This document shows positions 5,875 to 29,550 of a stretch of 64,000 nt of DNA, piece after piece (position 1 is the first letter of the stretch; each line of letters begins with the position of its first letter). The stretch is from IMG/VR virus record IMGVR_UViG_3300042378_000602; one strand, 5' to 3'. Source of the stretch: a virus. The notes beneath the pieces are model-generated. The model saw nothing but the letters and a program-made list of their open reading frames with translations. It was not told the origin of the DNA and did no database searches. The translations under genes were made by a program, and so were the position numbers.

Positions 5875-5876
5875 TT

Positions 5877-8212: not shown

Positions 8213-8240
8213 TTCACAAAACAAAATATTTTATTTATAA

Positions 8241-8717: not shown

Positions 8718-8793
8718 AAAAACCTTTATTAGTTTACTTCCAGGGACAAAAAATTACATTTTTAACAAAATAAACTTTAATTATTAAATCAAA

Positions 8794-8976: not shown

Positions 8977-9153
8977 TATTGAATCAACATTTTTTTTTAT
9001 ATTTGTTTTTACAATATTGATTGTATTCAGAAACCTATTTAGGATTATAAGTACCCTGTTAGATAAAGAACCAAAAAAAATTGTTTATACTAACAGGGAA
9101 CTTATAATTTTAGGTCTATCATTGTCTTACATTATAACATTTATCAAATTCAC

Positions 9154-9570: not shown

Positions 9571-9681
9571 TGAAAAAGGAAAGGATAAGAAAAGTTTAGA
9601 AATTGATAAGAAAAAATTCATCCAAGAAATAAAAAAGTATAAGAAAACAGATTTGATTCCAATTCCAAAAAAATTGACATT

Positions 9682-9912
9682 ATGGGAGAAAATAAAGATA
9701 ATGATTTTGGGACAATAAACAAGTTGGCTCTCGTAGCCGAATCTGTACAGACTCTTTTCGAGGGTAAAGCAACTGTGGTCTTTGAATTGACTAAAAAAGA
9801 ATATCAACCGGTAATAAACCAGTTCAGAGAGATTGACAGACATCACAAACAGTTCTCCATAGATATTTCAGGGACTGAGTTTCATTTTTTACTCATCGAG
9901 GATGAGTCGTAG
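9682..9912 (+). CDS. hypothetical protein
   Basis: small ORF. Confidence 0.3.
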   Translation: MGENKDNDFGTINKLALVAESVQTLFEGKATVVFELTKKEYQPVINQFREIDRHHKQFSIDISGTEFHFLLIEDES

Positions 9913-10531: not shown

Positions 10532-10533
10532 AC

Positions 10534-11451
10534 ATGAAAAATTACTACAAATTATTAGAAGTTGAAGAGAATGCTTCAGAAGATGATATAAAAAAGAGTT
10601 ATAGAAACCTGTCAAAAAAATATCATCCAGACTTGAACCCTCAAGGGGCGGAGAAATTCAAGGAAATCAATGAAGCATATGAAGTCCTGAGTAACAAGGA
10701 AAAAAGAAAGAAATATGATTTTCAGAAATCTAATCCCTACAACGGAAGTGAATTTTCGGACTTTTTCGCATCTATGTTTTCGAACCAAAATTTCCAACCA
10801 CCAAGGAACCATCCAGCACCAGATAAGATTTTGAATCTTCAATTGACCCCTTTAGAATCATATTTAGGACAAGAAAAAAATATTCAATATTTCAGGGAAC
10901 TTCATTGCGATACTTGCGTAGGAACAGGAGGGGACAGGGCAATTTGTGGATTATGTGAAGGTACAGGTTTTATTGTGAAAACATTCGGTACAGGATTTTT
11001 AGTTCAACAGGTCCGGATGGCATGTCCAAATTGCGAGGGACGGGGATATAATCTCATAAATAAATGTTATAAGTGTTCAGGTAAAGGTACCTTAGGTAAT
11101 GCAAATGAAATAAAGATAAACATACCTAAAGGTATTGATAGTGGACAATTCGTGAGAATACGGGGTATGGGGGACTATAGAAATGGTAATTATGGTGACC
11201 TCTTGATTCAGATAGAATTGAAAAGTTCCGAAGGATTCGAAAAAATGGGTAGTGATTTAGTATATAACCTTTATCTCAATTATGAGGACCTATTGAAGGA
11301 TAAATATTCAATACCACACCCAGATGGAGAACTTATAGTTCCCGCTCCGAAAAATTTTGACACTTCGAAGCCTTTGAGGCTTAGGGGTAAGGGATACAGT
11401 TCAGGAGACATGTTCATCAAAATACATGTCAAATTTGATAGACCTACTTGA
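10534..11451 (+). CDS. dnaJ: DnaJ-like co-chaperone (J-domain plus four CxxCxGxG zinc fingers plus C-terminal domain)
   Basis: YYKLLEV...YRNLSKKYHPDLNP (HPD motif) at the N-terminus; CDTCVGTGG, CGLCEGTGF, CPNCEGRGY, CYKCSGKGT. Confidence 0.85.
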   Translation: MKNYYKLLEVEENASEDDIKKSYRNLSKKYHPDLNPQGAEKFKEINEAYEVLSNKEKRKKYDFQKSNPYNGSEFSDFFASMFSNQNFQPPRNHPAPDKILNLQLTPLESYLGQEKNIQYFRELHCDTCVGTGGDRAICGLCEGTGFIVKTFGTGFLVQQVRMACPNCEGRGYNLINKCYKCSGKGTLGNANEIKINIPKGIDSGQFVRIRGMGDYRNGNYGDLLIQIELKSSEGFEKMGSDLVYNLYLNYEDLLKDKYSIPHPDGELIVPAPKNFDTSKPLRLRGKGYSSGDMFIKIHVKFDRPT

Positions 11452-11603
11452 AAAAATTTATCAATAGTTTAATAAGAACGTAGTTACCGTAAATTGCTGA
11501 AGCTAATATGTAAAAACCGAAAAATAACATCGGAGTTACAGTCTTGAATAAAGATTTTTTTTTACATTTACTACAACCTTGAGATTCTTCCATATTTATA
11601 AGT

Positions 11604-11780
11604 ATGATTTTAGAGCAAATTATTAGGAGGGTCTTGCATCAATTTTTAGATGAAAAGGACCAAAATAAATTTAAGAAACCACGTAAATATAGTCAATCGT
11701 ATTGTAAATCTACACCTTGCTCCAAAATGGGTTTCACTCAGAAAGCTTCTTGTAGACCCTACAAAAATTGTTATAAGTAA
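11604..11780 (+). CDS. small Cys-rich hypothetical protein (58 aa, below ORF-track cutoff)
   Basis: uninterrupted ATG-to-TAA reading frame in the 11452-11817 gap; CATATTTATA motif at 11591-11600 just upstream. Confidence 0.3.
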   Translation: MILEQIIRRVLHQFLDEKDQNKFKKPRKYSQSYCKSTPCSKMGFTQKASCRPYKNCYK

Positions 11781-11805
11781 AATTTGCCTTTTTCTTTTTT
11801 TTTCA

Positions 11806-11813
11806 TATATTTG
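11806..11813 (+). promoter_or_regulatory. Bacteroidetes-type promoter (-7 TATATTTG, -33 TTG at 11784-11786)
   Basis: TAnnTTTG with TTG 19 nt upstream; ATG 11818 follows 4 nt later (short/leaderless transcript). Confidence 0.45.
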
Positions 11814-11817
11814 ACTT

Positions 11818-12657
11818 ATGCTAAGTTATATAGGTGGAAAATCAAAAATTGGTAAATGGATTATTGAGTACTATCTCGAAGACATGGAGACATATGTGGA
11901 AACATTCGGGGGAATGTTTTGGTGTTTTTTCAATATGGATTTAGAAAAATTTCCAAATCTCAAAAGAGTGGTTTACAATGACTTCAATCCTTTGAATTAT
12001 AATTTGTTCAAATGTGTACAAAATCCCGCTGAATTACAGAGGGCTTTGGATAACATCCCTGTACAAGAATACGGAACATCACTAACTGATATTAGCTTCA
12101 AAGATAGATTCAGAGAATTTCAAACTGAAATATTTTCTTCAGGTTTTACGATAAATTATCCTGATTATGAAGTTGCAGCAAAATATGTTTATGTTGTAAC
12201 ACAAGTTTTCAGTGGTTCAAAACCCGAAACATCGAGTTTTATAGATTTAAAGGGAAAGTACAGGTCTAAATATTTAGCTTTCAGAGATAAGTTGTCAAAC
12301 CCAAAGTGGGTAGAACATTTCTTGAAGATTACAAATGTAGAAAACTTAGATTTTCAAGAAGTAATAGAAAAGTATGATTCCCCCTCGACCTACATCTATT
12401 TAGACCCACCCTATTGGAAAACTGAAAACTATTATTCGAATCATGACTTCGACCGACAGGACCATGAAAGACTCTCTGTAATTTTGAATCAAGTTCAAAG
12501 TAAATTTAGTTTATCATACTACGATTTCGATTTATTACATCAGTGGTATCCTGAATCTACCTTCCGATGGGAAAGAAAAAAATTCGCAAAGGCTGCCGCT
12601 GCAAAAAAGGGTACAAAACAAAATTTGGGTGAAGAGCTTTTGATTATGAATTATTAG
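11818..12657 (+). CDS. dam: DNA adenine methyltransferase, Dam/D12 class
   Basis: YIGGKSK N-terminus, ETFGGMFWCFFN (motif I), YLDPPYW (DPPY motif IV). Confidence 0.85.
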   Translation: MLSYIGGKSKIGKWIIEYYLEDMETYVETFGGMFWCFFNMDLEKFPNLKRVVYNDFNPLNYNLFKCVQNPAELQRALDNIPVQEYGTSLTDISFKDRFREFQTEIFSSGFTINYPDYEVAAKYVYVVTQVFSGSKPETSSFIDLKGKYRSKYLAFRDKLSNPKWVEHFLKITNVENLDFQEVIEKYDSPSTYIYLDPPYWKTENYYSNHDFDRQDHERLSVILNQVQSKFSLSYYDFDLLHQWYPESTFRWERKKFAKAAAAKKGTKQNLGEELLIMNY

Positions 12658-12699
12658 TTATTTTTACACTTTGATTGTATTTATATTAAAGTTTACTAA

Positions 12700-14052
12700 A
12701 TGAGATTCACCAATTTATTGAAGTCCATCATTTTGGAGGCACAAGAAAAAATTGATTTTTTGATTGATACTTATGCTAAATCAAAAAAGAAGAAAGATGG
12801 TTCAATCAAAAAAGCAAAACTTACACCTAAAGAGTTGTCTATCTTAGTTGCGGCTGACCCCGAAACAAATCTTCATAATGTTGAAATTCCAACCTCAGAC
12901 GTGAAGGAATTGGCTAAAGTTAAAGCAGGACCATACTCTCCGTGGATTATCAAAAGATATTTGGAATTGAATCAGAATACTGAAATTCCTTATGGTGAAT
13001 CAGGATATGAAAGAGAATTGAAGACGCTCAAGGATAGATTCATGGAGGATTTGTACAAAATTACCGAGGATTTAAAAAAGTTCGATAGATTTAAATCAAG
13101 AATTCCTCAAGAACTAAGAGATATCAATAAGTTGACTCCTGAAAAATTATATGATATCGTAAAAGATTTCGATATAACAATCGCCACTACAACCAAAGCA
13201 GAAAGAAAATCTGCACCTGTACATCCTGGTGGGAAATTGGTTTTTGATTCACCTAATTTGAGAGTGGTTGAAATAACAGACAAAGGAAATTTGGGTAAAG
13301 AGGCGGCTTGTTTTTATGGTGGAAATCAACAAGAAACAAGATGGTGTACATCAGCACCCGGTCTATCCCATTTTGATTATTATATCGGGAAAGGACCTCT
13401 ATATGTAGTTTTTGACCCTTCAGACCCGAATGTTTCACCAACAACAGGATTACCTGTTGAAAGATTCCAATTATCTTTCGAAACTGACCAATTCATGGAC
13501 AGACATGACCATTCAATTGATATAATTGAAAAGTTGAATGGTCCTTGGAAGGAGCTCAAACAAGTGTTCAAACCTAAATTTGCAAGGGGTCTCACAACTG
13601 GCGGTACGAAACTTACTATTGATAATTTCAAACATGGTAATGTTGGTAAATTTGTGGCACTTTATGGTTTGGAGGAACTATTTGAAAGTTTACCTGATAC
13701 CCTTGATGAAATTGCTATCTCACAAAAATCAGATAAGGGACAAAACATTGACATCAAGATTCCTGCTTCCATAAAAAGATTTAAAAATATGGAGGTAATA
13801 TTGTTAGATAATTGTATTAGTTCTTTACCTGATGAAATTTGTGAACTGAAAGAATTGAAGTTTCTAAGCTTACTCAATAACCCCAACTTAAAAGAACTAC
13901 CTGACTGTTTGAACAATCTCAAAAATTTGGCCTTCATCGCTCTTACAGGTAGTCCCAATGTTCGTATTCCTGAGTGGTTAAAGAAGAGAGGTAAAACCAT
14001 GAGAAAAGACGATAGTAATGGTAATCTTTGGGATTTGGAATATGATAAATAA
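12700..14052 (+). CDS. hypothetical protein with C-terminal leucine-rich repeats
   Basis: LxxLxxLxLxxN-type repeats LLDNCISSLPDEICELKELKFLSLLNNPNLKELPDCLNNLKNLAFIAL. Confidence 0.5.
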   Translation: MRFTNLLKSIILEAQEKIDFLIDTYAKSKKKKDGSIKKAKLTPKELSILVAADPETNLHNVEIPTSDVKELAKVKAGPYSPWIIKRYLELNQNTEIPYGESGYERELKTLKDRFMEDLYKITEDLKKFDRFKSRIPQELRDINKLTPEKLYDIVKDFDITIATTTKAERKSAPVHPGGKLVFDSPNLRVVEITDKGNLGKEAACFYGGNQQETRWCTSAPGLSHFDYYIGKGPLYVVFDPSDPNVSPTTGLPVERFQLSFETDQFMDRHDHSIDIIEKLNGPWKELKQVFKPKFARGLTTGGTKLTIDNFKHGNVGKFVALYGLEELFESLPDTLDEIAISQKSDKGQNIDIKIPASIKRFKNMEVILLDNCISSLPDEICELKELKFLSLLNNPNLKELPDCLNNLKNLAFIALTGSPNVRIPEWLKKRGKTMRKDDSNGNLWDLEYDK

Positions 14053-14069
14053 TTACTAAATTTGTTTTT

Positions 14070-14354
14070 ATGAGTGTTGATGTAGAAATCTACATGAATA
14101 ACATAATCAAATTTTTCAGAAATAATCCTAAGGATTTACAAAATCTTGTGCCTCTTCACAAGGAAGATGAGTTTTATAAAAAAATTCGAGAGGTTGCAAC
14201 TAAAAATTCGTCAGAAGGGAAGGAGATTAGTTTAACTCAAAAACAATTATTGGACATTTGCGTTGTAATAAACGGAAAAGAACCCAAACCCGATGAAATT
14301 TTGGATGAAAGAGTTTTCATCCCTTCTCCATTTGGTTTTATTTGTTTGAATTAA
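14070..14354 (+). CDS. hypothetical protein
   Basis: ORF. Confidence 0.4.
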   Translation: MSVDVEIYMNNIIKFFRNNPKDLQNLVPLHKEDEFYKKIREVATKNSSEGKEISLTQKQLLDICVVINGKEPKPDEILDERVFIPSPFGFICLN

Positions 14355-16009
14355 AATTTTTCTTATTTTTGTGTCCTATGAATGACACAGTTATCTACAA
14401 AAAAGTTTTTCAAAGACATGTTTCGAGAGAAGCCCAAAACTATTCCCTCATAGATAGTAACAAAAAAGAATATTACGACGGAGTCCACCCTTTTTTTGAT
14501 TTTATATCAACATACAGAGACGAAGACACATTTAAGACTAATCTTAAAAATCTTTTATTTACAATTATTCAAGACACTGTAACAATTTTGATTGAACAGA
14601 AAGAAGAAAAAATTTCTTTAAAAATTTTCCAAAAATCTTTTTCAAGAAAGGTTGGACTTCAATATTTTAAATTATATAAAAATATAAGGTATGTTACCGT
14701 CAACATGAAGTACGGTAATATATATTTTGGTGAAATGAACAATTATCAGAATAAGAAAAAAGTCCATAAGAAAGTTCGTTCAAATTTCATCATAAATGAT
14801 TCTTTCAAAACTTTCAGAACATCACTCAAGAACATAATCAACGAATTCAGTGCGGACCAAAACACAGATGTTATAAACGAAGTATCTAGAATTTTTTTGG
14901 ATAAAATAGACGGAGGCGTTAAAGGATTATCATTTGGAGATAGACTTTTCAAGTATTATTTAGATAAGAAACAAATAAAATACCCAAATAATTTTCCCTT
15001 ATATTCAAACTTTCTTATTGGTAATTTCAGAAAAAAATTAAAAAAATTAGATAATAGATTGGTTGATACCTTCATGTTGATGAATGACATAAACGGAAAA
15101 AAATTAAAGAAAGTTCTCCATACTGCTAATCATCTAAATGTATCAAACTATAAAGTCGGACTTAAACTATTCGGTTCCGATTGGATAAATCAAGATGAAA
15201 AATTATTGAAGGATATATTCAATAATCAAGTTAGTTTGGATTTGAGTGATAAACAAATATCACAATTTAATTTGCTGATTTGTCCTAAAGAAAAAAAGAG
15301 GGTTTTCCTTTTGTTTAAAACATTCAATTCGAATAATGAAATTGATGAATGGACACTCAAAGACCACTTCCTTTTCTATATTCAATTGAAAAGTTTTGGG
15401 GAAACTGATATTGAGTGGAAATCTACAGATAACTCTGATTTTTTCAGAGAAGAGCATTTAGATTGGGTCAATAAGTTAGAACATTATAAGAATGGTACTT
15501 ACAATAGAATTTATCCAAAAATTTATTATGAGGTAATTCAAAATTTTCTAATAGGTGATATTCAGTTCTATCCTAAACTTCTCACTAATTCTTCGGAGTA
15601 TAATAGTGAGAGTTCGATTCAAAGTAACTGTGTCAAAGGTTATATTGGTAGAGTGAGTTCTATAATCATTTCACTAAGAAAGAATGATATAGATTCTAAT
15701 GAAAGACTCACTATCGAATATAGAATTCATTATTTAAAAAATTCAGATAAAAGTCATATAGACCGTGTTCAATGTTTGGGGAAATACAATAGCTTACCTG
15801 ATAGTTCTTGGGATGAGCCTTTGAGAGTCTTGGATTCTCAGGTGAAAAAATTATTGAACGATTCTAATTTCCCTTTTTACAAACTAACTAAAGAATGTAG
15901 TAATGGGGTAAAATTCGAGTCAGATACAATGTTCAATCAGGATGGTTATCTTGAATGGACTTACAAAGCTATTGATAATTCAGGTATGTCGGATTATTTT
16001 CTGTTTTGA
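14342..16009 (+). CDS. hypothetical protein (555 aa)
   Basis: long ORF, no recognised motifs. Confidence 0.5.
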   Translation: MFELKFFLFLCPMNDTVIYKKVFQRHVSREAQNYSLIDSNKKEYYDGVHPFFDFISTYRDEDTFKTNLKNLLFTIIQDTVTILIEQKEEKISLKIFQKSFSRKVGLQYFKLYKNIRYVTVNMKYGNIYFGEMNNYQNKKKVHKKVRSNFIINDSFKTFRTSLKNIINEFSADQNTDVINEVSRIFLDKIDGGVKGLSFGDRLFKYYLDKKQIKYPNNFPLYSNFLIGNFRKKLKKLDNRLVDTFMLMNDINGKKLKKVLHTANHLNVSNYKVGLKLFGSDWINQDEKLLKDIFNNQVSLDLSDKQISQFNLLICPKEKKRVFLLFKTFNSNNEIDEWTLKDHFLFYIQLKSFGETDIEWKSTDNSDFFREEHLDWVNKLEHYKNGTYNRIYPKIYYEVIQNFLIGDIQFYPKLLTNSSEYNSESSIQSNCVKGYIGRVSSIIISLRKNDIDSNERLTIEYRIHYLKNSDKSHIDRVQCLGKYNSLPDSSWDEPLRVLDSQVKKLLNDSNFPFYKLTKECSNGVKFESDTMFNQDGYLEWTYKAIDNSGMSDYFLF

Positions 16010-16344
16010 TGGATAGACACCAATATATTGTGAATTTAGAGAGAGATGGTAAATTTTTTTCTAATCTAAAATTTACCATACCTGATTTAACCATTCCTAA
16101 AAATTTGAAGGATAAAAGATATTTTCCGGTTTATTCGGAAAGAATTCTTGGTCCCAATAATAAAACAACCCTCAAAAACTACATATTAAAATCGGCACAA
16201 GGATTTTATTTGTGTTTCGATAAGTTGGAAAATGATTCATCTGAGGTGACTATTTATTTTGAAGAGAGTCAAGATATCGAATTACAATTTTTCGTAAATA
16301 ATTTTTTAAAAACTTTCAAAAATGCAACAACTAACAACAAATGA
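16006..16344 (+). CDS. hypothetical protein
   Basis: ORF, start overlaps upstream stop. Confidence 0.4.
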   Translation: MMDRHQYIVNLERDGKFFSNLKFTIPDLTIPKNLKDKRYFPVYSERILGPNNKTTLKNYILKSAQGFYLCFDKLENDSSEVTIYFEESQDIELQFFVNNFLKTFKNATTNNK

Positions 16345-16648
16345 ACTAAAAGAAAAAATCAATAACAGAGAAAACTTCATATTAGATTTATATGCTACGT
16401 GGTGCGGACCCTGTAAAATGATGTTGTTTAATTTAGATAAATTAGAGGAGCATTTATCTAAAGAATCTGGAAATACTCCAAAATACGGAATTTATAAATT
16501 TGACATTGACTCAGATAGAGAATTCATAATGAGTGAGATGGGTATCAGAAGCGTACCAACAATCAAAATATTCAAAGAAGGAAAAGAAGTTTTTTCAAAA
16601 GCGGGAGTTATGTCTACTCTTGAAGTTCTAAATTTATTACAAAATTAA
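16322..16648 (+). CDS. trxA: thioredoxin
   Basis: WCGPC active site in a 108-aa thioredoxin-fold protein. Confidence 0.8.
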   Translation: MQQLTTNELKEKINNRENFILDLYATWCGPCKMMLFNLDKLEEHLSKESGNTPKYGIYKFDIDSDREFIMSEMGIRSVPTIKIFKEGKEVFSKAGVMSTLEVLNLLQN

Positions 16649-16651
16649 AAT

Positions 16652-16951
16652 ATGTCAAAATTATCTGTTATAGTTTATACAATGAAGGGATGTCCTCATT
16701 GCAAAGACTTCAAAGAGTTATTAGTTAAAGAAGGAATCGAATTTCACGATAGAGATATTGATGAATACGAGGAAGAGTATGATATATTTTCCAAAGTAAC
16801 AGACAACGATATGATACCTGCTTTACTTGTCATAGAGGGAGACCTTAAAAAACATGAATCTTTTTTATATGTTCCCGAAAAAAATTACAACGAGCTTACG
16901 GAAGCCGTAGATATTATAAGAGGACATCAAAAAAAATTAGGGATTATCTAA
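16652..16951 (+). CDS. glutaredoxin-like protein
   Basis: N-terminal CPHC motif (MKGCPHCKDFKELL) in a 99-aa protein. Confidence 0.65.
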   Translation: MSKLSVIVYTMKGCPHCKDFKELLVKEGIEFHDRDIDEYEEEYDIFSKVTDNDMIPALLVIEGDLKKHESFLYVPEKNYNELTEAVDIIRGHQKKLGII

Positions 16952-17637
16952 ATTGAAATAATTCCTTTTATTTTCTTTTTTAAAAAATCTAAGTCTTTCT
17001 CATAAAAATTTAGTTCTTCGTTCCAATTAGATTCGATGACCTCCTTTTTGAATTTCTGAGCATTGGTATCTACACAATCTAAAAAAAGAGAGTTCAGAGT
17101 TTCTGAGACGGTGCCATCTTCCTCTTGAAATAAGATTTCTATTTGACCTTTATCTTTTTTTATCGTTAGAAGTAATTTCTCAAAAACTAAATTAGGTGGT
17201 ATATTGTATACTAGTCTTTTTGCAAAGAAATAAAGAAGTCGTCCCATTTCCAAAGAATAACCGAATGGAAACTTAGAACTAATGACAAGTTCGTCCGCCA
17301 TTTCTAAAATTTCTTTTTTGATACTACAATTCTCTGAGTTATAAAAAAAGCCTGAAAATTTTTTCACCTCTGATAGTTTACACCCATAGTCAATCAAATC
17401 TATGGTATTTAGAAGTTTCTTCTCATTTTTCAAGTCTGGATTTTTGGTATAAAATTCGTCTTTGACTTTGTTCAAATCTAATATTTCTTTAGAGGTGGTC
17501 TTCCCCTTTACAACGTAAAAATTTTCACAATCAACAACCTGAATTATAGAATTTTCTTTGAATTGTATTTTAGATAAAATAAACTCTGAGAGAGAATTTA
17601 CAAAAAATTCACGAGATGTTCTAGATAATATTTTCAT
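16948..17637 (-). CDS. hypothetical protein
   Basis: minus-strand ORF, divergent from fibre genes. Confidence 0.5.
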   Translation of the reverse strand: MKILSRTSREFFVNSLSEFILSKIQFKENSIIQVVDCENFYVVKGKTTSKEILDLNKVKDEFYTKNPDLKNEKKLLNTIDLIDYGCKLSEVKKFSGFFYNSENCSIKKEILEMADELVISSKFPFGYSLEMGRLLYFFAKRLVYNIPPNLVFEKLLLTIKKDKGQIEILFQEEDGTVSETLNSLFLDCVDTNAQKFKKEVIESNWNEELNFYEKDLDFLKKKIKGIISI

Positions 17638-17750
17638 CTTATATTTATTACTTCTTCAATCATAATTAATTTTTGAAAAATAATGAAGACTAACTAATAT
17701 TTCCAAAACATTTAGTGTATTTGGATATTTATCATTAGTATTTAAAAAGG

Positions 17751-20700
17751 ATGGGAAAAAATATTTTAATTGTTCCGAGTAATTTCACTGAGAGGACTGC
17801 TAACCGTACTCCATTTATAAGTTATGAGGGTACCACGGGTCAGGTTATTCTGACGGTTACACCTTCAGGTAAAATTAAATTCAGCGGTAATACTGTTGGT
17901 GATACAAATTTGATGACAGTAGACCCTGCAAATTCTACAGTTTCAGTAAACACTATTTTTGTAGGAAATTACCTTGCAATAGGAGGGGTTCAGGTAATAA
18001 ATGCCACAAACAATTGGATTGGACCCACAACAGGTATAGCTGGTTCTCAGGGTGCAAAAGGATTCAACGGAAATACAGGTCCTACGGGTGCAATAGGTAA
18101 CACAGGAGCACAAGGTGCTATTGGTGCTGCAGGCGCCACAGGACCTCAAGGTGCTCAAGGTACATTTGGGCCTAAGGGTGCTCAAGGAACTGCCGGAGCA
18201 CAAGGAAATACGGGTGCTCAAGGTAACAATGGACCCAAGGGTGCCACAGGAGCACAAGGGTCAGCAGGTGCGCCAGGTAATACAGGTAACCCTGGACCTA
18301 CAGGACAAAGTGGACACCCTGGTCCACAAGGACCAACGGGAGCCGTTGGTAATACAGGAGCACAGGGTGCGATTGGGGTTACAGGACCCACAGGTAATAC
18401 AGGTGCTCAAGGACCTGTAGGACCAACAGGTGGACAAGGTGCTCAAGGACCACAAGGAGCTCAAGGTCCAAAAGGATTTTCAGGTGCACAAGGTGCAACA
18501 GGAAACACAGGTGGAACAGGACCCACAGGAAATACAGGACATCCTGGCGCTCAGGGTGCTACAGGAAATCCTGGACCTACGGGTGTCACAGGGTCTCAAG
18601 GAGCCGTTGGACCCACCGGTGCTATAGGAGCTCAAGGACCCAAAGGAGCACAAGGGAATACTGGAAACACAGGGGCACAAGGAGCCACAGGAAATCCTGG
18701 TCCACAAGGTTTCACAGGTAATGTTGGTGCGGTAGGGCCCACAGGTGCGATTGGTCCAAAGGGACCACAAGGACCTACAGGAAATACAGGTAATGTGGGA
18801 CCACAAGGTGCCACAGGTACCACAGGCCCAACAGGTGATACAGGAGCTACAGGACCTGCAGGACCACAAGGTGCTGTGGGACCAAAAGGAGACACAGGTA
18901 ATACGGGGGCTCAGGGTGCTGTGGGGCCACAAGGAGCAACTGGTCCGACAGGACTTTCAGGTGCTCAAGGTGCCCAAGGTGGGGTAGGACCGACAGGGGC
19001 TACAGGACCACAAGGAGCTCAAGGACCTGCGGGTAATACGGGTCATTCTGGTGCACAAGGTGCTACAGGACCAACAGGGCCTGGAGGTAACACAGGTGCT
19101 CAAGGGGCGGTTGGACCGAAAGGGGCTACAGGACCTCAGGGAGCTCAAGGACCCGCAGGTGGTACAGGTAACACAGGGGCTCAGGGTGCCACAGGACCAC
19201 AAGGTTCGCAAGGGGCGGGTGGTGGAACAGGTCATCCAGGTGCCCAAGGTCCCCAAGGAGCGATAGGACCACAAGGTTCACAAGGAGCCACAGGACACAC
19301 TGGTGCTCAAGGCCCACAAGGTGCCACAGGACCACAAGGCTCACAAGGGGCTACAGGACATCCTGGTGCCCAAGGTAGTCAGGGTGCGGCCGGACCAAAA
19401 GGACCTAATGGATTCACAGGTCATCCTGGAGCGCAAGGACCGCAAGGTTCAGCGGGAGCAACGGGTGCTCAAGGTCAGACAGGTCATCCGGGGGCACAAG
19501 GTGCAGGTGGACCTACTGGGTCTCAAGGACAAGGGGGTGGTACAGGACATCCTGGAGCTCAAGGTGCCATAGGACCCAAAGGACCTCAAGGACCTACAGG
19601 TGCTACTGGCCATCCTGGTGCTCAAGGTGCTGGTGGAGGTACTGGTAACGAGGGGGCACCAGGTTTCACAGGACATCCAGGTGCACAAGGTGCTACAGGA
19701 CCAGGAGGTAGTCCGGGTGCTCAGGGTTCACAAGGTTCCCAAGGACCTCAAGGAGCTCAAGGAAATACCGGTCCGACCGGCGTACCGGGAGCTACGGGGC
19801 ATCCTGGTGCTCAAGGAGCGGTCGGTCCAACTGGCCCACAAGGTCCGTCAGGTAATACAGGACATCCTGGTGCACAGGGAGCAACGGGTCCTACAGGACC
19901 TCAAGGAAATACAGGTGCCACGGGTGCTATTGGACCCCAAGGTGCGGGAGGTGCCACAGGCTCACAAGGGGCTGTAGGACCTCAAGGAGCAACTGGAGCC
20001 ACAGGAGCCCAAGGTCCACAAGGTCCAGGTGGTCCTACAGGACCTGGCGGGGCACAAGGTGCTCAAGGAGGAGGAGGTGCCACAGGACCTCAAGGACCAC
20101 AAGGTCCAAAGGGACCTCAGGGTGCTACAGGTCCTACAGGGGGTCCTGGTCCAACTGGACCACAAGGTCCTCAGGGACCAACAGGAGCACCTGGACCTAC
20201 AGGTGCCACAGGACCACAAGGTCCTACAGGTGGTCAAGGTACACAAGGCTCATTAGGTGCAACAGGAGGGCAGGGTGCTCAAGGTTCCCAAGGAGCTGTT
20301 GGACCTGGAGGTGTAACATGTCAACTGAATAGTATTATTGCTCTTACAGGAAGTAGAAACCCATGTGTAGGTGTTTGTAATATCACTGTACCCAACGTTT
20401 ATCCATACACTCAAACTGCTTACACAGCCACACAAAACAAATATTTCGATGCTACGAATTGTTCAAATGGTACTTGTGATTGGAATACTTATAACTGGGA
20501 ACAATGGAATAGTGCATGTTATTCATTAAACGCCACTTGTGGTAATGGTACCTATCAGCAGGCTTGTGCTTATTCTGACGTGAAACTTAAAACAGGTATT
20601 GAAACCTTGAAAGATTCTCTTATAAAAATATTGGAAATAGAAACTGTTGAGTATGATTGGAACGAAAAAAATTGGGGTACCAAAGAAGAGTATGAATATT

Positions 20701-20912
20701 TTGCTCAGATGGGAAGATTACATCAGATAGGTCTAATTGCACAAAACGTAAGAATTCATTTCCCTGAAGCTGTTGGAATCGGTCCTGATGGATATTATTA
20801 CATTGACTACAAGAAATTAAATTCTGTTGTAGTTGAAGGTATAAAAGAACAACAAGTATTTATTGAAGAGATAACTAAACAAGTAGACGAATTAGAAATT
20901 AAATTGAGATAA
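17751..20912 (+). CDS. collagen-like (Gly-X-Y) tail fibre protein with C-terminal intramolecular chaperone (peptidase S74) domain
   Basis: about 850 aa of uninterrupted GXY triplets (many [12 protein letters not shown]); Cys-rich module; C-terminus [12 protein letters not shown]...[13 protein letters not shown]... of the S74 type. Confidence 0.8.
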
Positions 20913-23896
20913 TGCCATCTAATGTAATTATATATCCTACCGGTAGAACGTGGAACACTGACCCTCATTTTATTTTTGATGATGGAACTAATAAATTACA
21001 ATTCAACGTTTTAACTGACGCAATAAGTCTGTCTGCTGGGTCAATTTCAAATAATTTTGTAATTGGTACAAAAGGTTCAGACAATGGTGTCACAACCTCA
21101 GGGGCTTCCGCACAGTCACTATATTTCAACGCCTCACAATTCATAGGTTCTGGAGGTGTTTGGGTCGGACCAACTGCCGGTATCGCTGGTGCTCAGGGAG
21201 CTCAAGGTGCTCAGGGAGCCCAAGGTGGTCAGGGAGCTCAAGGAGCTCAAGGTGCAAATACAGGAGCTCAAGGTGCTACAGGTGCCCAAGGAGCAACAGG
21301 CGCACAAGGTGCGGCAAACACAACACAAGGTGCTCAAGGTACAATTGGGTCTCAAGGAGCTCAGGGTGCCACAGGAGCTCAGGGTGGAAATACGGGTGCT
21401 CAAGGAGCCACAGGAGCTCAAGGTAACCAAGGAGCTCAAGGTGCTCAAGGAGGAACAGTTGGAGCTCAGGGTGCTCAGGGTGGTCAGGGAGCTCAAGGTG
21501 CTCAAGGTGCTCAAGGTGCAAACACAGGTGCTCAGGGTGCGACAGGTCCCCAAGGAGCCCAAGGAGCGGTAGGTGCTACAGGAGGAGTTCAAGGTGCTCA
21601 AGGTGCCGTCGGTGCCACAGGTGATTTAGGTGCTCAGGGAGCTCAAGGAGCCAATACCGGAGCCCAAGGTGCTCAAGGTGCACAGGGAACTCAAGGTGCA
21701 CAAGGTGCTCAGGGAGGAAATACTGGTGCACAAGGTGCTCAGGGTACTCAGGGTACACAAGGTGCTACAGGTGCTCAAGGAGGAGTACAAGGTGCTCAAG
21801 GTGCTATAGGTACTACAGGACCACAAGGTGCTCAAGGGGCCCAAGGGGCAAACACAGGAGCTCAAGGTGCTCAAGGTGGTCAAGGTGCTCAAGGAGCTCA
21901 AGGTGCTCAAGGAGGAGTACAAGGTGCTCAAGGGGCTACAGGTCCTACGGGGGTACAAGGAGCACAAGGTGCACAAGGAGGAGTACAAGGAGCACAAGGT
22001 GCAACAGGACCTCAAGGAGCTCAAGGGGCTCAGGGATTACAAGGTGGACTTCAAGGTGCCCAAGGTGCAACAGGTGCTCAAGGTGCACAAGGTTCTACAG
22101 GTGCTCAAGGAGGTACCCAAGGAGCTCAAGGTGCCACAGGACCACAAGGTGCACAAGGAGCAATAGGAGCTCAAGGAGGAGTACAAGGTGCTCAGGGTGC
22201 AACAGGAGCAGCGGGAGCTCAAGGTGCTCAAGGAGCCCAAGGTGCAAATACAGGTGCTCAAGGCGCCACAGGACCTCAAGGTGCTCAGGGGGCGACAGGA
22301 GCCCAAGGGGGTGTACAAGGTGCTCAAGGCGCCACAGGTCCTCAAGGTGCTCAAGGTGCTCAGGGGGCTCAAGGTGCAAATACAGGAGCTCAGGGTGCTA
22401 CAGGTCCTCAAGGTGCTCAAGGTGCTCAGGGAGCCCAGGGTGCCAGTCCAGGTGCTCAGGGCGCTCAAGGTCCAAAAGGACCTCAAGGTGCTCAAGGAGC
22501 CCAAGGTGGAAGTGCAGGTGCCACGGGTGCGCAAGGTGCAACAGGTCCTCAAGGAGCTCAAGGTGCCCAAAGTGGTATAACAGGACAGGCAGGAGCTCAG
22601 GGTGCTACAGGTCCCCAAGGGGCACAAGGTGCTCAAGGTGGAAGTGCCGGTGCTACAGGAGCAGTCGGTGCACAAGGAGCTACAGGAGCACAAGGAGCCC
22701 AAGGTGCTAATCAAGGAGCACAAGGTGCTACGGGTGCTACAGGAGCTCAAGGTGCTCAAGGTGCTCAAGGTGCTAATCAAGGAGCCCAAGGTGCGACAGG
22801 TCCACAAGGTGCTCAGGGTTCACAGGGTGCACAAGGTGCTAATCAGGGAGCACAGGGGGCTCAAGGAGCTCAAGGTGCTCAAGGTTCTCAGGGAGCACAA
22901 GGAGCCAATCAGGGTGCACAAGGTGCTACAGGTCCACAAGGTGCACAAGGTGCAATTGGACCAAATAATACGACACAAGGTGCTCAAGGTGCTCAGGGAG
23001 GTCAAGGTACTCAGGGAAGTCAAGGAGCACAGGGTGCTAACCAAGGCGCTCAAGGGGCACCTGGAGTTCAAGGAGCTCAAGGAGCACAAGGTGCACAGGG
23101 TGCTAATCAAGGGGCTCAGGGAGCACCTGGAGTTCAAGGTGCTCAAGGTGCTCAAGGTTCTCAAAGTGCTACTTCGGGAGCACAAGGTTCTACAGGACCT
23201 CAAGGTGCTCAAGGTTCTACAGGACCCGGTCCTGGTCCGCAAGGAGCCCAAGGTCCACAAGGATTGACTGGAGGTGGAGGGAACACAGGTGCACAAGGGT
23301 CCCAAGGAGCTACAGGAGCCACGGGTCCTACAGGTGCTCCTGGTGGAACAGGAGCCACAGGTGCTCAAGGAGCCACAGGATTTGCTGGAAGTACTCAGGG
23401 TGCTCCAGGTGTACCAGGACCACAGGGGGCTCAAGGTCCGACAGGTGTTGGTGGTGCCACAGGCCCAACAGGCCCAACAGGTTTCAAGGGGAATACAGGC
23501 CCAACAGGCCCAACAGGTGCCACAGGTGCTCAGGGAGCACAAGGCGCTAAGTCAGATAAAAGATTAAAAGATAATATAGTTGAATTCAAAGAACCTCTCA
23601 CCCGTCTGAAACAAATCCAAGGTGTTAAATTTACTTGGGACCATGAACATCCTAAAATTAAATTTCATAAGCACCTGAATGCTAAAGAAGCGTTCACAGG
23701 TGATACTTATGGATTCATAGCTCAAGATGTAGAAAAAGTATTTCCTGAGATTGTTGACACTGACCCAACTGATGGATACAAATCTATGGATTATGGACTC
23801 TTGGTTAGTTTAGCCTTCGCATCAATTAAAGAGAATCAAAAAAGAATATTGTCAGTGAAAGATAGAATAAATAGATTAAAACAAGTAGTGAACTAA
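20912..23896 (+). CDS. collagen-like tail fibre protein with C-terminal S74 intramolecular chaperone domain
   Basis: GAQGAQGAT-type triplets across about 800 aa; C-terminus [12 protein letters not shown]...[16 protein letters not shown]; start overlaps upstream stop (TAATG). Confidence 0.8.
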
Positions 23897-26800
23897 TGGC
23901 ATCATACGTAGTATATTCAGGGACGAGTTATCTAAATGCGTGTAATTCTGTGGCATCACAGACTATTTATACACCGTGTCCATCACTAAGTGGAGGTTGT
24001 GTAGTCTATACAGATGCAGGTTATACTAATGTTATTACTTTCTCTCCATTATTACCTAATTTATATCTAAAGGATTCTGTTGATACAACGGTTTGGAAGA
24101 TAAATAGGACAGGAACTGTCACGGAGGTTAGAAAATGTACTGAATTTTCAGGTGATGAAAATATAATTGTTTATCCTGATGGAGCCAATTTTCAACTTAT
24201 AGATTCTGGAGGAACTGCCACTAACTGGTATATGGAGAATGGTGAGTTGAAATTTGGAACTTTAACTTCCACTTTAGCAAGAATAAGTACTTCCTATCCA
24301 AACCTCAGAGTCAGTGGGGGGTCAATAACACTTACTAACAAACTTGCAAATGCCTCGGGAGATTTAATAAATTCAACAGGATGGGTCGGAGCTAAATTAC
24401 CTCAAGGTCCAACGGGTGCTCAAGGTTCACAAGGTTCTACTGGTGCTCAAGGAGCTCAAGGGGGTCAAGGAGCACAGGGTACCCAAGGTTCAACAGGTGC
24501 CCAAGGTTCTCAGGGTGCTCAAGGGGGACAAGGTGCTCAAGGTGCTCAAGGGTCACAAGGACCTACAGGTGCACAAGGTTCACAAGGTGGTCAAGGTTCA
24601 CAAGGCTCACAAGGTTTTACAGGTGCTCAGGGTTCACAAGGAGCTCAAGGAGGACAAGGTGCTCAGGGTTCACAAGGAACTTTGGGACCCACAGGAGCTC
24701 AAGGTTCTCAAGGTGGTCAAGGAGCCCAAGGAGCCCAAGGTTCAACAGGTGCTCAAGGTTCGCAAGGAGCACAGGGTGGACAGGGCGCTCAAGGTTCACA
24801 AGGGGCTAAAGGTCTCACAGGTGCTCAAGGGGCACAAGGTGGACAAGGTGCCCAAGGTGCTCAAGGTTCCCAAGGTACAACAGGAGCCCAAGGTTCCCAA
24901 GGGGGACAAGGTGCTCAAGGTGCTCAAGGCGCAGTTGGTCCTACAGGTGCTCAAGGAGCTCAGGGTGGACAAGGGGCTCAAGGAGCTCAAGGGGCTGTCG
25001 GTCTCACAGGAGCTCAAGGAGCTCAAGGTGGGCAAGGTGCTCAAGGAGCACAAGGGGCTCTCGGTCCTACAGGAGCTCAAGGTTCCCAAGGTGGACAGGG
25101 TGCTCAAGGAGCACAAGGTTCACAAGGTTTAACAGGTGCGCAAGGGTCCCAAGGTGGTCAAGGAGCTCAAGGAGCTCAGGGAGGACAAGGTGCTCAAGGT
25201 GCCCAAGGTCCTAAAGGTCCACAAGGTGCTCAAGGAGCCCAAGGTGCTCAAGGTTCAACAGGAGCCCAAGGTTCCCAAGGTGGAACAGGAGCCCAAGGTG
25301 CTCAAGGTTCAACAGGAGCCCAAGGTTCACAAGGTTCACAAGGTGGAACAGGAGCTCAAGGAGCCCAAGGTTCAACAGGAGCCCAAGGTGCTCAAGGTTC
25401 CCAAGGAGGACAAGGTGCCCAAGGGGCTCAAGGTACAACAGGTGCCCAAGGAGCTCAAGGAGCTACAGGAGGTCAAGGTGCTCAGGGTTCTCAAGGACCC
25501 ACAGGAGCCCAAGGTTCTCAAGGTGCCGGAGGAGGACAAGGTGCACAAGGAGCTCAAGGTATAGTTGGAGCCCAAGGTGCTCAAGGTGGAGGTGGAGGAC
25601 AGGGTGCACAAGGAGCACAAGGAACGACAGGTCCCGTAGGTGCACAAGGTTCACAAGGTGGGCAAGGTGCTCAAGGTTCCCAAGGTGCACAAGGTGCCAC
25701 AGGAGCTCAAGGTTCTCAGGGCGTCGCCGGAGCTCAAGGTGCTCAAGGTGCTCAAGGAGCTGTTGGTAGTCAAGGTTCACAAGGAGGACAGGGTGCACAA
25801 GGAGCTCAAGGTTCACAAGGAGCTCAAGGTGCAACTGGTCCTGGTGGCGGACAAGGTGCTCAGGGAGCACAAGGAGCCACAGGTTCACAAGGTGCTCAAG
25901 GTGGAGGTGGTGGACAAGGTGCCCAAGGTGCTCAAGGGCCCGTCGGTTCACAAGGTTTTCAAGGAACAACTGGAGGTCAAGGTGCACAAGGTGCGCAAGG
26001 ACCTACTGGACCTACAGGTATCACAGGACCTAAAGGGGGTCAAGGTGCACAAGGTGCTCAGGGAGGACAAGGTGCACAGGGACCACAAGGTCATATCGGT
26101 GCAAACGGTGCAACTGGTGTTCCTGGTCCTATTGGTCCCAAAGGACCTACGGGTCCTACGGGAGGTCAAGGTGCTCAAGGAGCTCAAGGACCTGGTGGTG
26201 CTCAAGGGGCTCAAGGTCCTACGGGAGGTCAAGGTTCCCAAGGTGGAGGAGGAGCTCAAGGGGCTCAGGGTCCAACAGGACCTGGAGGTGCTCAAGGTGC
26301 TCAAGGAGCTCAAGGTCCCAAAGGTCCAATAGGTGGACAAGGTTCTCAAGGTCCCACAGGGGCTCAGGGTACCGCCGGAGGACAAGGTTCTCAAGGCGGT
26401 GGTGGTGCCCAAGGTGCTCAAGGTGCTCAAGGTCCGCAAGGAGGCCAAGGTGCTCAAGGCGGTGGTGGTGCCACAGGAGCTCAAGGACCTCAGGGGGGTC
26501 AAGGTGCCCAAGGACCACAAGGTGGTCAAGGTCCACAAGGTGCACAAGGTGCAACCGGTCCAAATGGTTTACAAGGTGCTCAAGGTGCACAAGGTACCAC
26601 TGGTTCTGACCTAAGATTAAAAAAGGACGTAAAAGAAATACAATCCCCACTAGAAAAAGTCCTGAAATTGAGAGGTGTTTCATTCTATTGGAATAAATTA
26701 AATGATGAAACATCCCAATCAGGTAAACATGATATTGGATTCATTGCCCAAGAAATAGGTCATATATTACCTGAATTGGTTTTCAAGAAAAACACCGAGA

Positions 26801-26940
26801 ACGCATATTTCATGGTAAAATATGCTGAAGTAATAGCTGTTTGTTTAGAAGCCATTAAAGAACAATCCTTGATTTTGGAATCTAAAGAAATAAAACTTGA
26901 TGAGTTAGAGACAATAGCCAAGGAAAGAGGACTTATTTAG
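23896..26940 (+). CDS. collagen-like tail fibre protein with C-terminal S74 intramolecular chaperone domain
   Basis: 165-aa unique N-terminus, then GAQGSQG triplets; C-terminus [12 protein letters not shown]...[16 protein letters not shown]; start overlaps upstream stop. Confidence 0.8.
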
Positions 26941-27809
26941 ATTTCGGTCTTTTGAATTAAATCTCTTATTTCGAAACCAGTTTGGTATAACATCGACAGA
27001 AATTTTTTCCAAATTTCTGGGTTATACTTTTTAATCAATTCAACATAATAAATGTAGTAAGGTTCTTCTCCTCCTCTCTCAGACATAAAATCTGCAAGTT
27101 GAGGATTATCGGTGGTTAAATTTTTGAAAACTCTGATAAGGTCATTTCCCAAATGTTCATCATTTATTCTAAATAAAATATCCTTCGAGAGTTTAGATAG
27201 TGGGTCACCCTTGGCAAAATAATTGATTATATTTTTTAATGATTTTTCTAAAAATTGTAGGTTTTCAATTTTTCTGTTTCTTTTAACTCTTCTTTCAAAT
27301 TCGAGAACCAAACCCTCCAAAAATTCATTTGAAATTGCAAAAAATTCTATTGGATGACCCCAATAATCTTTATCTGATTTCTCATTGTAAGTCACCATAT
27401 ATTTGGGACTAAACAAATGAGATTGTGTTGGGTCACTGGCATGTATCATTTCATGATATAGTGTAAGATAAAGTGTTTTTTTTGACTCGTAGTGTTTTGG
27501 ATTTACTTCGATTACAATATCTGCCGGGTCGACTGACTTTTGAGGTTTTGTACCCATCTGACCCATGTAGGGTAGTCTTGGGTTTACCACGACTCTAGCT
27601 AAACCCTCTACTCCATCGGCTAATTTAAAAGGAATGACATCAACTAGTTCTTTTCCTTTATAAGGTTTATTTCTATCAGACCATAATTTTTCTGTGACGG
27701 ATTTCATTCTATCTCTCACATCATCAGAAAATTTATATCTCTGTGCCTCCAATATTAGATTGGTGATTATATTTCTTATTTTATTCATTTTTGTAAATCT
27801 ACCCCCCAA
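26937..27809 (-). CDS. hypothetical protein with HExxH zinc-peptidase-like motif
   Basis: [11 protein letters not shown] (SprT-like HEMxH); convergent with fibre operon. Confidence 0.45.
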
Positions 27810-28567
27810 TTTATTGGAATCTCTTTGAGACTTATTTTACTTACGAATTTATCAAAAGAGTTCTTGAAGGTCACCTGAGCTTTCTTGATGTCTTTTATTC
27901 TTGCCATATCAGGTAAAATCCCTGTAGATAAATATGCTTGAATCTCATCATCAATTACATTTTCACCATAACCCATGTTTTTGATTTTTCTTGTCATGGA
28001 ATCTAATGTAGATGGATTTAGGTTATTGATATTATAAGATTGTAAGTTTTTATAGTTAGGTGAACTATACCACAACCCATGTGCTAATTCATGATAGATT
28101 AAACTCAAGTCCTCTCCATCTGTTTGGTCGATACCGATTAAATAAAAATTGTTGTTACCTGTTTTTTCTTTTATGGTATCAATAATTGAAAACATAATAA
28201 GGTCAAAATAATTTATGTCAGGAATTACTTTTATACACGATTCGATTGAATCACACGGTAAATTATAACCAGACCAATCTTCATGGTAAGTGAAAATGTC
28301 ATTCTTAGTTTTTTCCTTATAGAATTTGACAAAATCGACCCATTTAAAACCTTGTCCTCTGAATGTCTCTGAGTCTGACTCATAAAATTCTTGATAACGC
28401 ATGAAAACTCTTGCACGGAGTTTATCATCTTTAATTACAACGGCAAAAATCTTTGGGAATATCTCAAACAATCTAATCTTAGATAGAATGTTTTTAATAT
28501 TCTTCGGGGGGTTTTTAGGTGGACTTTGAACCCTCTCATGAATGGTATTTATACTTTTATTATTCAT
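27785..28567 (-). CDS. hypothetical protein with HExxH motif
   Basis: IYHELAHGLWY; overlaps neighbours at both ends. Confidence 0.45.
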   Translation of the reverse strand: MNNKSINTIHERVQSPPKNPPKNIKNILSKIRLFEIFPKIFAVVIKDDKLRARVFMRYQEFYESDSETFRGQGFKWVDFVKFYKEKTKNDIFTYHEDWSGYNLPCDSIESCIKVIPDINYFDLIMFSIIDTIKEKTGNNNFYLIGIDQTDGEDLSLIYHELAHGLWYSSPNYKNLQSYNINNLNPSTLDSMTRKIKNMGYGENVIDDEIQAYLSTGILPDMARIKDIKKAQVTFKNSFDKFVSKISLKEIPINWGVDLQK

Positions 28568-29550
28568 CAGAAAAAATCACTGAAATACATGTTTATATTT
28601 TTATCGACCTCTCTACTATCGGGGTAGTCAGAAATCCTTGGGTACAAACAATCATTGTTTTCGTCTAATATTCTAATAAAATACGCCTCATCTTCAATTG
28701 CGTTTGAATACTTGTTATGTAAGAAATCGTAAATTTGTCCTTCGAAATCCTTTATTTTCATTTTGTATTGATACTTCATAGTATCTTTTTTATAAGGATG
28801 TGGGGATGATATCCACTCACCCTCATAGAAATAATCACCCAATTCATTCATTATATTTTTATAAATTTGACTCTCATATGCTGAATTGTAAGCGTCGGAG
28901 TGTATTCTATACAAATCACCTTCAATATCCAAATATTTTTTCATCAATTCATTGAATGTATCTCTATCATCCACAATTCTGGCTATGTTTGATTCGTTTA
29001 CTTCAACGTAGTCTGGATGACCTTGTTCAGAGGCAATCAATTCTAGTTCCTCAGTCTCTGTTTCTACCCGTTCATTTTTTAAATCATCTATAATCTTCTT
29101 GTATAAAGTTTTCAAATTTTCTTGATTTAATTCCTCAACCACGTCTCTATGAACATCATCAGTTGTTTCTGAATAATATTCAAACCAATCATTATCCTCA
29201 CCCAAGATATTCTCAATGGTGTCTCGTGAAAAATCTCTACTACTATCACAAAAAAGTGTTGCTAATTCTTTTCTGTCGTCCAAAATCAAATAAGCATCAC
29301 CTTTTTCATCAATTTGAACATCTCCTAAAATGCGATTCATGTATTTGTAAAACTCTTGTTTATCATTCTCCATGGTCCAAATGAAATATTGGTTTTGCCA
29401 TTCTCTACTGTCATTGGCTAATGGGTCTAATAAATGAAAAAGTTTTTTCGATTTAAGCACCGCAAAAAAATCATCATAATCATTGTTGAAGTATTTCAAC
29501 GCCCATGTGTCACCATCATTAAAATCACTTATAATTTCTTGCCAATTCAT
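28567..29550 (-). CDS. acidic hypothetical protein
   Basis: 327-aa minus-strand ORF. Confidence 0.5.
   Translation of the reverse strand: MNWQEIISDFNDGDTWALKYFNNDYDDFFAVLKSKKLFHLLDPLANDSREWQNQYFIWTMENDKQEFYKYMNRILGDVQIDEKGDAYLILDDRKELATLFCDSSRDFSRDTIENILGEDNDWFEYYSETTDDVHRDVVEELNQENLKTLYKKIIDDLKNERVETETEELELIASEQGHPDYVEVNESNIARIVDDRDTFNELMKKYLDIEGDLYRIHSDAYNSAYESQIYKNIMNELGDYFYEGEWISSPHPYKKDTMKYQYKMKIKDFEGQIYDFLHNKYSNAIEDEAYFIRILDENNDCLYPRISDYPDSREVDKNINMYFSDFF

Follow-up and report, generated by a model that had tools for sequence, protein, structure and literature searches.

Three coupled collagen-like genes of an uncultured phage as candidate chains of one heterotrimeric fibre

Do three adjacent collagen-like fibre genes in a phage genome encode three fibres, or the three chains of a single one? 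The question is raised by the virus record IMGVR_UViG_3300042378_000602 of IMG/VR, from which we analysed a stretch of 64,000 nucleotides (nt), here called the window. Its genes A, B, and C lie directly one after another, and we lean slightly towards the reading in which their products are three different chains of one heterotrimeric collagen-like fibre. An earlier note on this DNA, made from the sequence alone, had described three tandem, translationally coupled genes of about 1000 amino acids (aa) each, and all three were found on the plus strand exactly where it had placed them (Table 2). The starts of B and C overlap the preceding TAA stop in the motif TAATG, which supports the note's view of a single operon, and the many spurious open reading frames (ORFs) that it had reported in other frames were seen as well. 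Each gene encodes a small N-terminal domain (N-domain), about 250 Gly-X-Y triplets, and a C-terminal Peptidase_S74 chaperone domain. The G+C content of the three genes is 48-58%, and that of the genome outside them about 31%.

Profile searches found both collagen and Peptidase_S74 in A, B, and C. Pfam Collagen (PF01391) matched the three products with E-values of 3e-94, 1.7e-65, and 7e-68, and Peptidase_S74 (PF13884) matched them with 36.2, 49.0, and 52.7 bits (E-values 7e-9, 8e-13, and 5e-14), above the curated cut-off of 22 bits. The hallmark S-D-x-[KR]-L-K, which had been noticed at all three C-termini, is present as S-D-V-K-L-K in A, S-D-K-R-L-K in B, and S-D-L-R-L-K in C, with the catalytic Ser followed by Lys at position +5. 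A profile of B orthologues matches the structures 6F45 (E-value 2.7e-13) and 7DC3 (E-value 5e-4), and the domains have the expected S74 fold, a beta "donut" with a C-terminal helix that forms a trimeric coiled coil. These results argue for the domain interpretation of the earlier note, collagen followed by a self-cleaving S74 intramolecular chaperone, and also for its suggestion that the mature products would be rod-like.

In the collagen domains, Gly occupies every third position over long runs. Their lengths are below the 800-850 aa first estimated (Table 2), and the description of the triplets as uninterrupted holds for A (254 triplets) and C (245 triplets) but not for B, where 250 triplets are divided into 33 runs by 32 interruptions. 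Nearly all of these are one residue after seven triplets, usually T or Q, or four residues after six triplets, such as NTTQ or SATS. The repeat unit of B is exactly 22 aa (66 bp) long and is present in about 30 copies of about 70% identity, and C has a 63-bp repeat of seven triplets. The Pro contents of A, B, and C are low (12.5%, 4.2%, and 4.4%), and a triple helix is predicted from the Gly-X-Y sequence. PHROGs 6320, 5073, 819, and 8745, which are phage collagen-like fibres, were matched strongly, with E-values of 1e-100 to 1e-150. A recent repeat expansion or an assembly artefact is unlikely, since the same protein C was found on seven independent contigs and the length rule described below holds across many assemblies. 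The proposal that the fibres are far longer than usual was right about their length, which would be about 218 nm if they are fully helical, but not about its being exceptional. An unrelated phage on a 247-kb IMG/VR contig (L091, positions 1745-10279) encodes a 2844-aa protein with 493 Gly-X-Y triplets and an S74-type C-terminus, and very long collagen fibres are thus not unique to the lineage of the window.

The three genes are conserved as a set. We compared 19 related loci from about 17 distinct genomes, with length counts made over 18 genomes. In all 19 loci, A, B, and C follow one another in this order with stop and start codons overlapping, the flanks are syntenic, and no locus among them has only one or two of the genes. 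The domain plan is also kept: A consists of N-domain, collagen, Cys-rich module, and S74; B of N-domain, collagen in 22-residue units, and S74; and C of N-domain, collagen, and S74. The strict Ser/Lys motif is present in 49 of the 57 chains and is missed in three A, two B, and three C chains. We counted collagen length in triplet-equivalents: a gap in the triplets adds floor(length/3), and inserted domains of more than 20 aa are left out. This length varies 3.5-fold between genomes, from 98 to 345, and the difference among A, B, and C within a genome is at most 3 in 12 of the 18 genomes (Table 1). The median within-genome spread is 1.5%, compared with 61% for lengths permuted among genomes, and none of 100,000 permutations reached the observed value. 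The length differences between nearest relatives are matched over the three chains as well (A/B/C -55/-56/-53, 55/53/55, and 33/31/36).

Table 1. Collagen lengths of the three chains, in triplet-equivalents, in the window and in related genomes
Genome	A	B	C
L024	98	98	98
L016	118	118	117
L020	144	143	141
L025	153	154	152
L015	161	161	160
L035	167	167	166
L018	177	174	177
L029	195	195	194
L028	214	216	215
Window	254	253	245
L033	269	269	270
L045	304	302	304
L050	305	300	301
L022	314	314	320

The agreement is in triplets. The median deviation of B from the mean of A and C is 0.7% when the extra residues are left out and 3.5% when residues are counted. Similarly, in A chains with inserted domains of 92-221 aa, the triplets flanking the insert sum to the B count, for example in L022. 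A match by triplets, and not by residues or inserts, is expected of triplet-by-triplet pairing between the chains rather than of equal physical length. This finding bears on the best-surviving alternative, in which the genes make three separate homotrimeric fibres, A3, B3, and C3, each relying on its own S74 domain for folding and release, as the earlier note implied. We consider this alternative possible but rather unlikely. The shared N-domain would then attach the fibres at equivalent sites of the particle, and their lengths would be kept equal by an external need, for instance the length of the tail or how far away the host surface lies. However, an external ruler leaves unexplained an agreement within 1-3 triplets (about 1-2.5 nm) across lengths of 98-345 triplets, and it does not account for the extra residues of B and the inserted domains of A going uncounted. 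Gene conversion was rejected as the cause of the equal lengths, as the longest exact DNA match between the paralogues is 22-29 nt and the repeats within a gene are only about 74% identical.

The terminal helices of the S74 domains differ among the three chains. Trimerisation of MyRF is driven mainly by a parallel coiled coil of three C-terminal helices, cleavage requires the trimer, and R695 at position g bridges E693 and E700 at position e of the neighbouring helix (PMC8326128). The terminal helices of the trio align to the coiled coil of the MyRF ICA domain (7DC3), and we transferred the heptad register from this domain by HMMER alignment (a = 0, 7, 14; d = 3, 10, 17). Helix position 13 corresponds to R695, and positions 11 and 18 to E693 and E700. 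The helix of A is acidic, with a mean charge of -3.5 over the 19 loci, mostly Glu or Gln at g13, and Glu at e18. The helix of B is basic (+2.2), with Arg or Lys at g13 and Lys at e18; Arg13 of B aligns with R695, yet its e18 is Lys. In most loci the C helix carries Lys or Arg at g13 together with Glu at e18, and its core position d10 is polar or charged (Lys, Arg, Ser, Asn, or His) in 14 of the 19, where the equivalent Leu of MyRF is essential.

Like-charge pairs between g and e' are found in 18 of 19 loci for B and in 10 of 19 for A. A simple g-to-e' charge score gives -1.6 for AAA, -3.2 for BBB, and +2.4 for CCC. The ring A>B>C>A scores +3.05 and is positive in all 19 loci, and the opposite ring scores -0.2. 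Taking the charge scores together with the polar d10 of C, each homotrimer has a defect and one ordered heterotrimer has none. The charge and core patterns of the predicted S74 coiled coil would favour ABC over AAA and BBB. If the chains formed separate homotrimers, the like-charge pairs of B and A and the polar d10 of C would be unexplained.

The collagen domains share a periodicity. When A, B, and C are indexed from the N-domain boundary, they show 7-triplet periodic arrays with the same start and end index. In the window, GGQ of C falls at 6 mod 7 (26 rows), GHP of A at 0 mod 7 (12 of 13), and the extra residue of B at 1 mod 7 (29 of 32). L029 has the same relative order of these motifs, and blocks of row variants coincide across the three chains. 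Row-similarity matrices are correlated between chains (Mantel r 0.3-0.8, p<0.001 in most genomes), and zero shift usually gives the best correlation; the Gly-Gly of C in GGQ lies one or two triplets ahead of the extra residue of B in 13 of 19 loci. At the junction with S74, the catalytic Ser is in the Gly frame in 17 of 17 B chains and in the Y frame in 14 of 16 C chains, and Trp lies at a distance of 6 or 9 from Gly in A and B versus 8 in C. A one-residue stagger between the chains, as suggested by these junction frames, was considered and not adopted: A and B share a frame, and there is no clean 0/1/2 stagger.

A common 7-triplet period over the same index range could also arise if three homotrimeric rods were packed side by side in register as a nine-chain fibre, with the 7-triplet motifs as lateral contacts. 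A 7/2 helix puts the same residues on one face, and such packing needs equal unit numbers. We regard this arrangement as improbable, since the rise from the extra residues would shift a B homotrimer out of step with A and C, by about 1.5 units in 30. This arrangement also gives no reason for the complementary coiled-coil helices, and we found no precedent for it.

For a single heterotrimeric fibre, we infer the following order of assembly. The observed overlaps of stops and starts may lead to roughly equimolar synthesis of A, B, and C. The C-terminal S74 domains would then join through their terminal helices into one A-B-C coiled coil, as the acidic helix of A, the basic helix of B, and the polar core of C would disfavour like-with-like trimers. 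The Pro-rich last 20-40 triplets would be brought together in this way, and the triple helix would zip from there towards the N-terminus. The three paralogous N-domains would cap the opposite end and fix the fibre to the particle, and each S74 domain would cut itself off at its Ser-Lys dyad. The mature product would be a rod of about 218 nm with the single variable Cys-rich domain of A at its tip, probably for host binding. Because the extra residue of B recurs every seven triplets, which is one turn of a 7/2 triple helix, its bulges would be in line on one face, near the Gly-Gly of C, and bending, lateral contacts, or a modification site are candidate roles. Our confidence is evenly divided on the full proposal, namely that this is the first natural ABC collagen outside animals, a phage fibre with chains selected, registered, and folded by co-evolved S74 chaperones and with a programmed one-residue bulge per turn.

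Several points weigh against the heterotrimer, and some of them favour three homotrimers. All solved S74 domains and all characterised prokaryotic collagen-like proteins, those of phages included, are homotrimers (PMC8326128, PMC8968730). A triple helix does not easily accommodate one extra residue in just one of its chains, and the regular insertions of B would keep register more easily if they were present in all three chains, as in B3. The 85-aa module of A between collagen and S74 would create an asymmetric junction relative to B and C, and a trimeric Cys-rich tip ahead of S74 would match the classic layout of tail fibres; however, B3 and C3 would then be bare rods without a distal domain. 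The C helix is self-complementary at g and e', and these pairs would permit a C homotrimer too. Three loci are outliers in length (A/B/C 131/160/145 in L017, 147/140/137 in L019, and 338/345/274 in L023), which could be due to short-read collapse, and C of the window is 9 triplets short, a larger mismatch than in any other of the generally well-matched genomes. More distant genomes have the periodic motifs in a different relative phase, and smoothed fine-scale profiles of Pro, charge, and hydrophobicity show no sharp zero-offset peak between the chains.

The Cys-rich module, which the earlier note had located in the first copy, was found there with eight Cys residues. Only A has a module between collagen and S74, and B and C run directly into S74. 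Its AlphaFold2 (AF2) model has a predicted local distance difference test (pLDDT) score of about 90-95, and no PDB match was found for this model. The mean identity across relatives is 21% for the tip of A, compared with 50-54% for S74 and 34-45% for the N-domains, a pattern of a conserved proximal domain and a variable distal domain. The Cys count of the tip is always even, from 6 to 14, across relatives. As the most variable part of the chains and with an even Cys count, the tip would fit a receptor-binding role. A of one related genome is without the Cys-rich module. Some A chains carry additional inserts, of 221 and 92 aa in L019 and of 123-135 aa in L022 and L023. These globular inserts sit after the first 7-36 triplets, and collagen resumes beyond them; L022 and L023 also have a Cys-containing insertion inside the N-domain of A. 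Homologues that seemed to join the N-domain to a different, swappable distal domain are in fact A chains with such an insert near the N-terminus, cut at contig ends.

The N-domains had been described as unique to each gene. They are instead distant paralogues, with an approximately 90-aa domain (N-[IV]-[IL]-I-x-P ... W-[IV]-G) common to A, B, and C at 22-29% identity and BLASTP E-values of 0.001 and 0.008 between the window chains. Only C has something additional, an 85-aa extension found in this genome alone, and the C chains of other genomes begin at the conserved motif (M/V)-A-E-N-I-I-I. The N-domain is restricted to this lineage, with 41 matches among 1.84 billion representative proteins, nearly all from the first residues of the protein. 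The AF2 model of the A N-domain is all-beta with eight strands (pLDDT 79), and it gave no specific or convincing PDB match.

It is very improbable that the products are not virion fibres and serve as an intracellular or released scaffold or as a host-surface mimic made during infection: the cassette does lie among non-structural genes (thioredoxin, glutaredoxin, methylases, DnaJ), with no recognisable capsid or tail gene in the approximately 84 kb inspected around it, and the PHROG "tail fibre" matches come from the collagen repeats and S74 alone, but the chains lack a signal peptide, S74 domains occur typically in fibres and spikes, receptor-binding proteins usually combine a conserved N-terminal domain with a hypervariable distal tip, and the structural genes of jumbo phages are often scattered.

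The proposed heterotrimeric fibre can be compared with several known systems. K1F endosialidase, T5 pb1, phi29 gp12, and S16/T4-type gp37 have a C-terminal Peptidase_S74 chaperone like A, B, and C. Those S74 fibres and spikes (K1F and others) are homotrimers with beta-helical shafts, whereas the shaft here is collagen. Unlike in them, three paralogous S74 domains are here kept as a set, and their helices appear mutually and not self complementary. MyRF, a eukaryotic membrane transcription factor, also differs from the trio in forming a homotrimer with self-complementary R695-E693/E700 salt bridges. The EPclA type and other phage collagen-like fibres are known as products of single genes that have short collagen runs and form homotrimers. 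The trio differs from these fibres in its approximately 250 triplets per chain and in its three fixed paralogues of matched length. Its domain plan resembles that of the EPclA-type prophage side-tail-fibre proteins of E. coli O157:H7, in which Gly-X-Y is reportedly flanked by non-collagen trimerisation or attachment domains (PMC3368898).

Three different chains of equal triplet number, as we propose here, are found in collagen I, IV, and IX and in C1q (A/B/C). Chain-specific interruptions occur in C1q and collagen IV. In heterotrimeric collagens and C1q, chain selection and the nucleation of folding, which starts at the C-terminus, depend on a non-collagen domain at that end (PMC8968730, PMC5353611). 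The chain-selecting domain of procollagen is removed afterwards, as would be the S74 domain. The animal selector is a C-propeptide, NC1, or gC1q domain, and the candidate selector of the phage trio is the self-cleaving S74 chaperone. The two groups have no sequence relationship outside the Gly-X-Y repeats. Unlike animal collagens, the phage trio is encoded by a virus of bacteria, and it is not known to contain hydroxyproline.

Mimivirus and other giant viruses have several collagen-like genes per genome, some of them in tandem, together with 2-oxoglutarate (2OG) oxygenase and glycosyltransferases. The window phage resembles them in its several collagen genes, its 2OG oxygenase, and its glycosyltransferases, but giant viruses infect eukaryotes. 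To our knowledge, neither S74 domains nor matched chain lengths have been reported for giant-virus collagen genes. We found no report in the literature of a viral or bacterial collagen built as a heterotrimer. The components, self-cleaving S74 chaperones and collagen-like fibre proteins of phages, are already known; judged from sequence, the novelty appears to lie in a fixed set of three chains that co-evolve, agree in triplet number, and have chaperone helices complementary to one another.

A heterotrimer of A, B, and C would revise the known distribution of heterotrimeric collagens, which have been described so far only in animals. It would extend the use of S74 chaperones beyond folding to chain selection, and it would offer a compact tool, compatible with E. 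coli, for making defined heterotrimeric collagens with small self-removing C-terminal domains. The length rule, equal triplets with extra residues uncounted, can be checked in any new genome of the lineage. If the heterotrimer fails, the locus would remain a three-fibre module, well conserved in a widespread uncultured lake phage, and the coupling of lengths would need another cause.

Table 2. Features of the collagen cassette and of the surrounding window
Feature	Position (nt)	Strand	Remarks
Promoter-like site	17673-17700	+	TTGAAA-16-TAATAT; in 113-nt gap upstream of A; consensus scan only, weak evidence
Gene A	17751-20912	+	1053-aa ORF
A, N-terminal domain	17751-18032	+	aa 1-94; putative anchor
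A, collagen	18033-20318	+	762 aa
A, Cys-rich module	20319-20573	+	aa 857-941, 85 aa; putative distal tip kept after cleavage
A, S74 domain and stop	20574-20912	+	Ser942, Lys947
Gene B	20912-23896	+	994-aa ORF; ATG overlaps stop of A
B, N-terminal domain	20912-21178	+	aa 1-89
B, collagen	21179-23551	+	791 aa, in 22-aa units
B, S74 domain and stop	23552-23896	+	Ser881, Lys886; directly after last triplet
Gene C	23896-26940	+	1014-aa ORF; ATG overlaps stop of B
C, extra N-terminal extension	23896-24150	+	contains Cys; not in the other 17 genomes
C, N-terminal domain	24151-24405	+	homologous to those of A and B by sequence comparison
C, collagen	24406-26604	+	735 aa, 244-245 triplets
C, S74 domain and stop	26605-26940	+	Ser904, Lys909
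Sigma-70-type factor	2027-2824		
DnaJ	10534-11451		full length
Thioredoxin	16322-16648		just upstream of cassette; syntenic in 17 of 18 loci
Glutaredoxin	about 16650-16950		just upstream of cassette
229-aa protein	16948-17637	-	upstream flank; 14 of 18 loci
HExxH protein, first	26937-27809	-	adjoins gene C
HExxH protein, second	27785-28567	-	
327-aa protein	28567-29550	-	downstream flank; 18 of 18 loci
tRNA-like match	38602-38672	+	Rfam, 33 bits; not called by ARAGORN; about 730 nt upstream of GOLLD
GOLLD RNA (Rfam RF02032)	39405-39811	+	314.7 bits, E-value 3e-89; full model length
2OG-Fe(II) oxygenase, two family-2 glycosyltransferases, UDP-galactopyranose mutase	45147-45671, 47675-50078, 50044-51162		18-24 kb downstream of cassette
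UmuC-type Y-family polymerase	54310-55515		
Peptidase_C39-like protein	57603-58304		

The window most likely derives from an uncultured jumbo phage that has no cultured relative, and related contigs reach 272.7, 317, and 321 kb. The phage is probably from fresh water, as judged only from the GOLLD RNA, a family derived from lakes, and from a contig in an Aquiluna metagenome-assembled genome (MAG). Of the window, three neighbouring genes, and the N-domain, none had a megablast or tblastn match in 50,697 phage records. Identical proteins were found on many metagenome contigs of up to 122 kb, and the neighbouring genes in more than 200 data blocks. In 185,579 scanned species genomes, the only matches were on two short MAG contigs (Betaproteobacteria and Aquiluna), probably mis-binned and unusable as a host call. 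A metagenome scan yielded only short contigs that break off within the repeats, and no additional complete cassette. Besides the genes in Table 2, the surroundings of the cassette include a Dam methylase, DUF3310, and a T4-type endonuclease V, the last of which lies just upstream of the window (L011). The GOLLD RNA, one of the giant, ornate, lake-derived RNAs, sits in a 1.6-kb stretch without called genes.

Some neighbouring genes may act together with the cassette. The downstream oxygenase, which matches PF13640 with 35 bits against a cut-off of 27, the glycosyltransferases, and the UDP-galactopyranose mutase could be modifiers of the collagen by hydroxylation or glycosylation; the Y position is Pro in the GHP triplets of A and commonly Thr. 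The flanking thioredoxin, glutaredoxin, 229-aa, and 327-aa proteins may have a part in assembly or in the redox state of the Cys-rich tip, and Pfam gave nothing reliable for the conserved flanking genes even at relaxed thresholds. The two HExxH proteins (HEMIH and HELAH) downstream of C are encoded on the opposite strand, and the first has weak matches to Peptidase_M91 and SprT-like (E-values 7e-4 and 0.016). This pair is present in just 7-8 of 18 related loci and is therefore not an obligate part of the cassette.

S74-type domains with 30-43% identity to the query were widespread in MAGs in a scan of genome contigs (L104-L183), including the candidate phyla radiation (CPR)/Patescibacteria, DPANN archaea, Bdellovibrionota, and Bacteroidota. 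In public gene calls for a 272.7-kb contig of JGI 3300045438 (L015, positions 8135-14593), the three collagen genes are broken up into about ten short spurious genes called in wrong frames. For the C-terminal region, most homologues in databases are fragments that stop at contig ends inside the repeats. From these mis-calls and fragments, automated annotation evidently hides the cassette.

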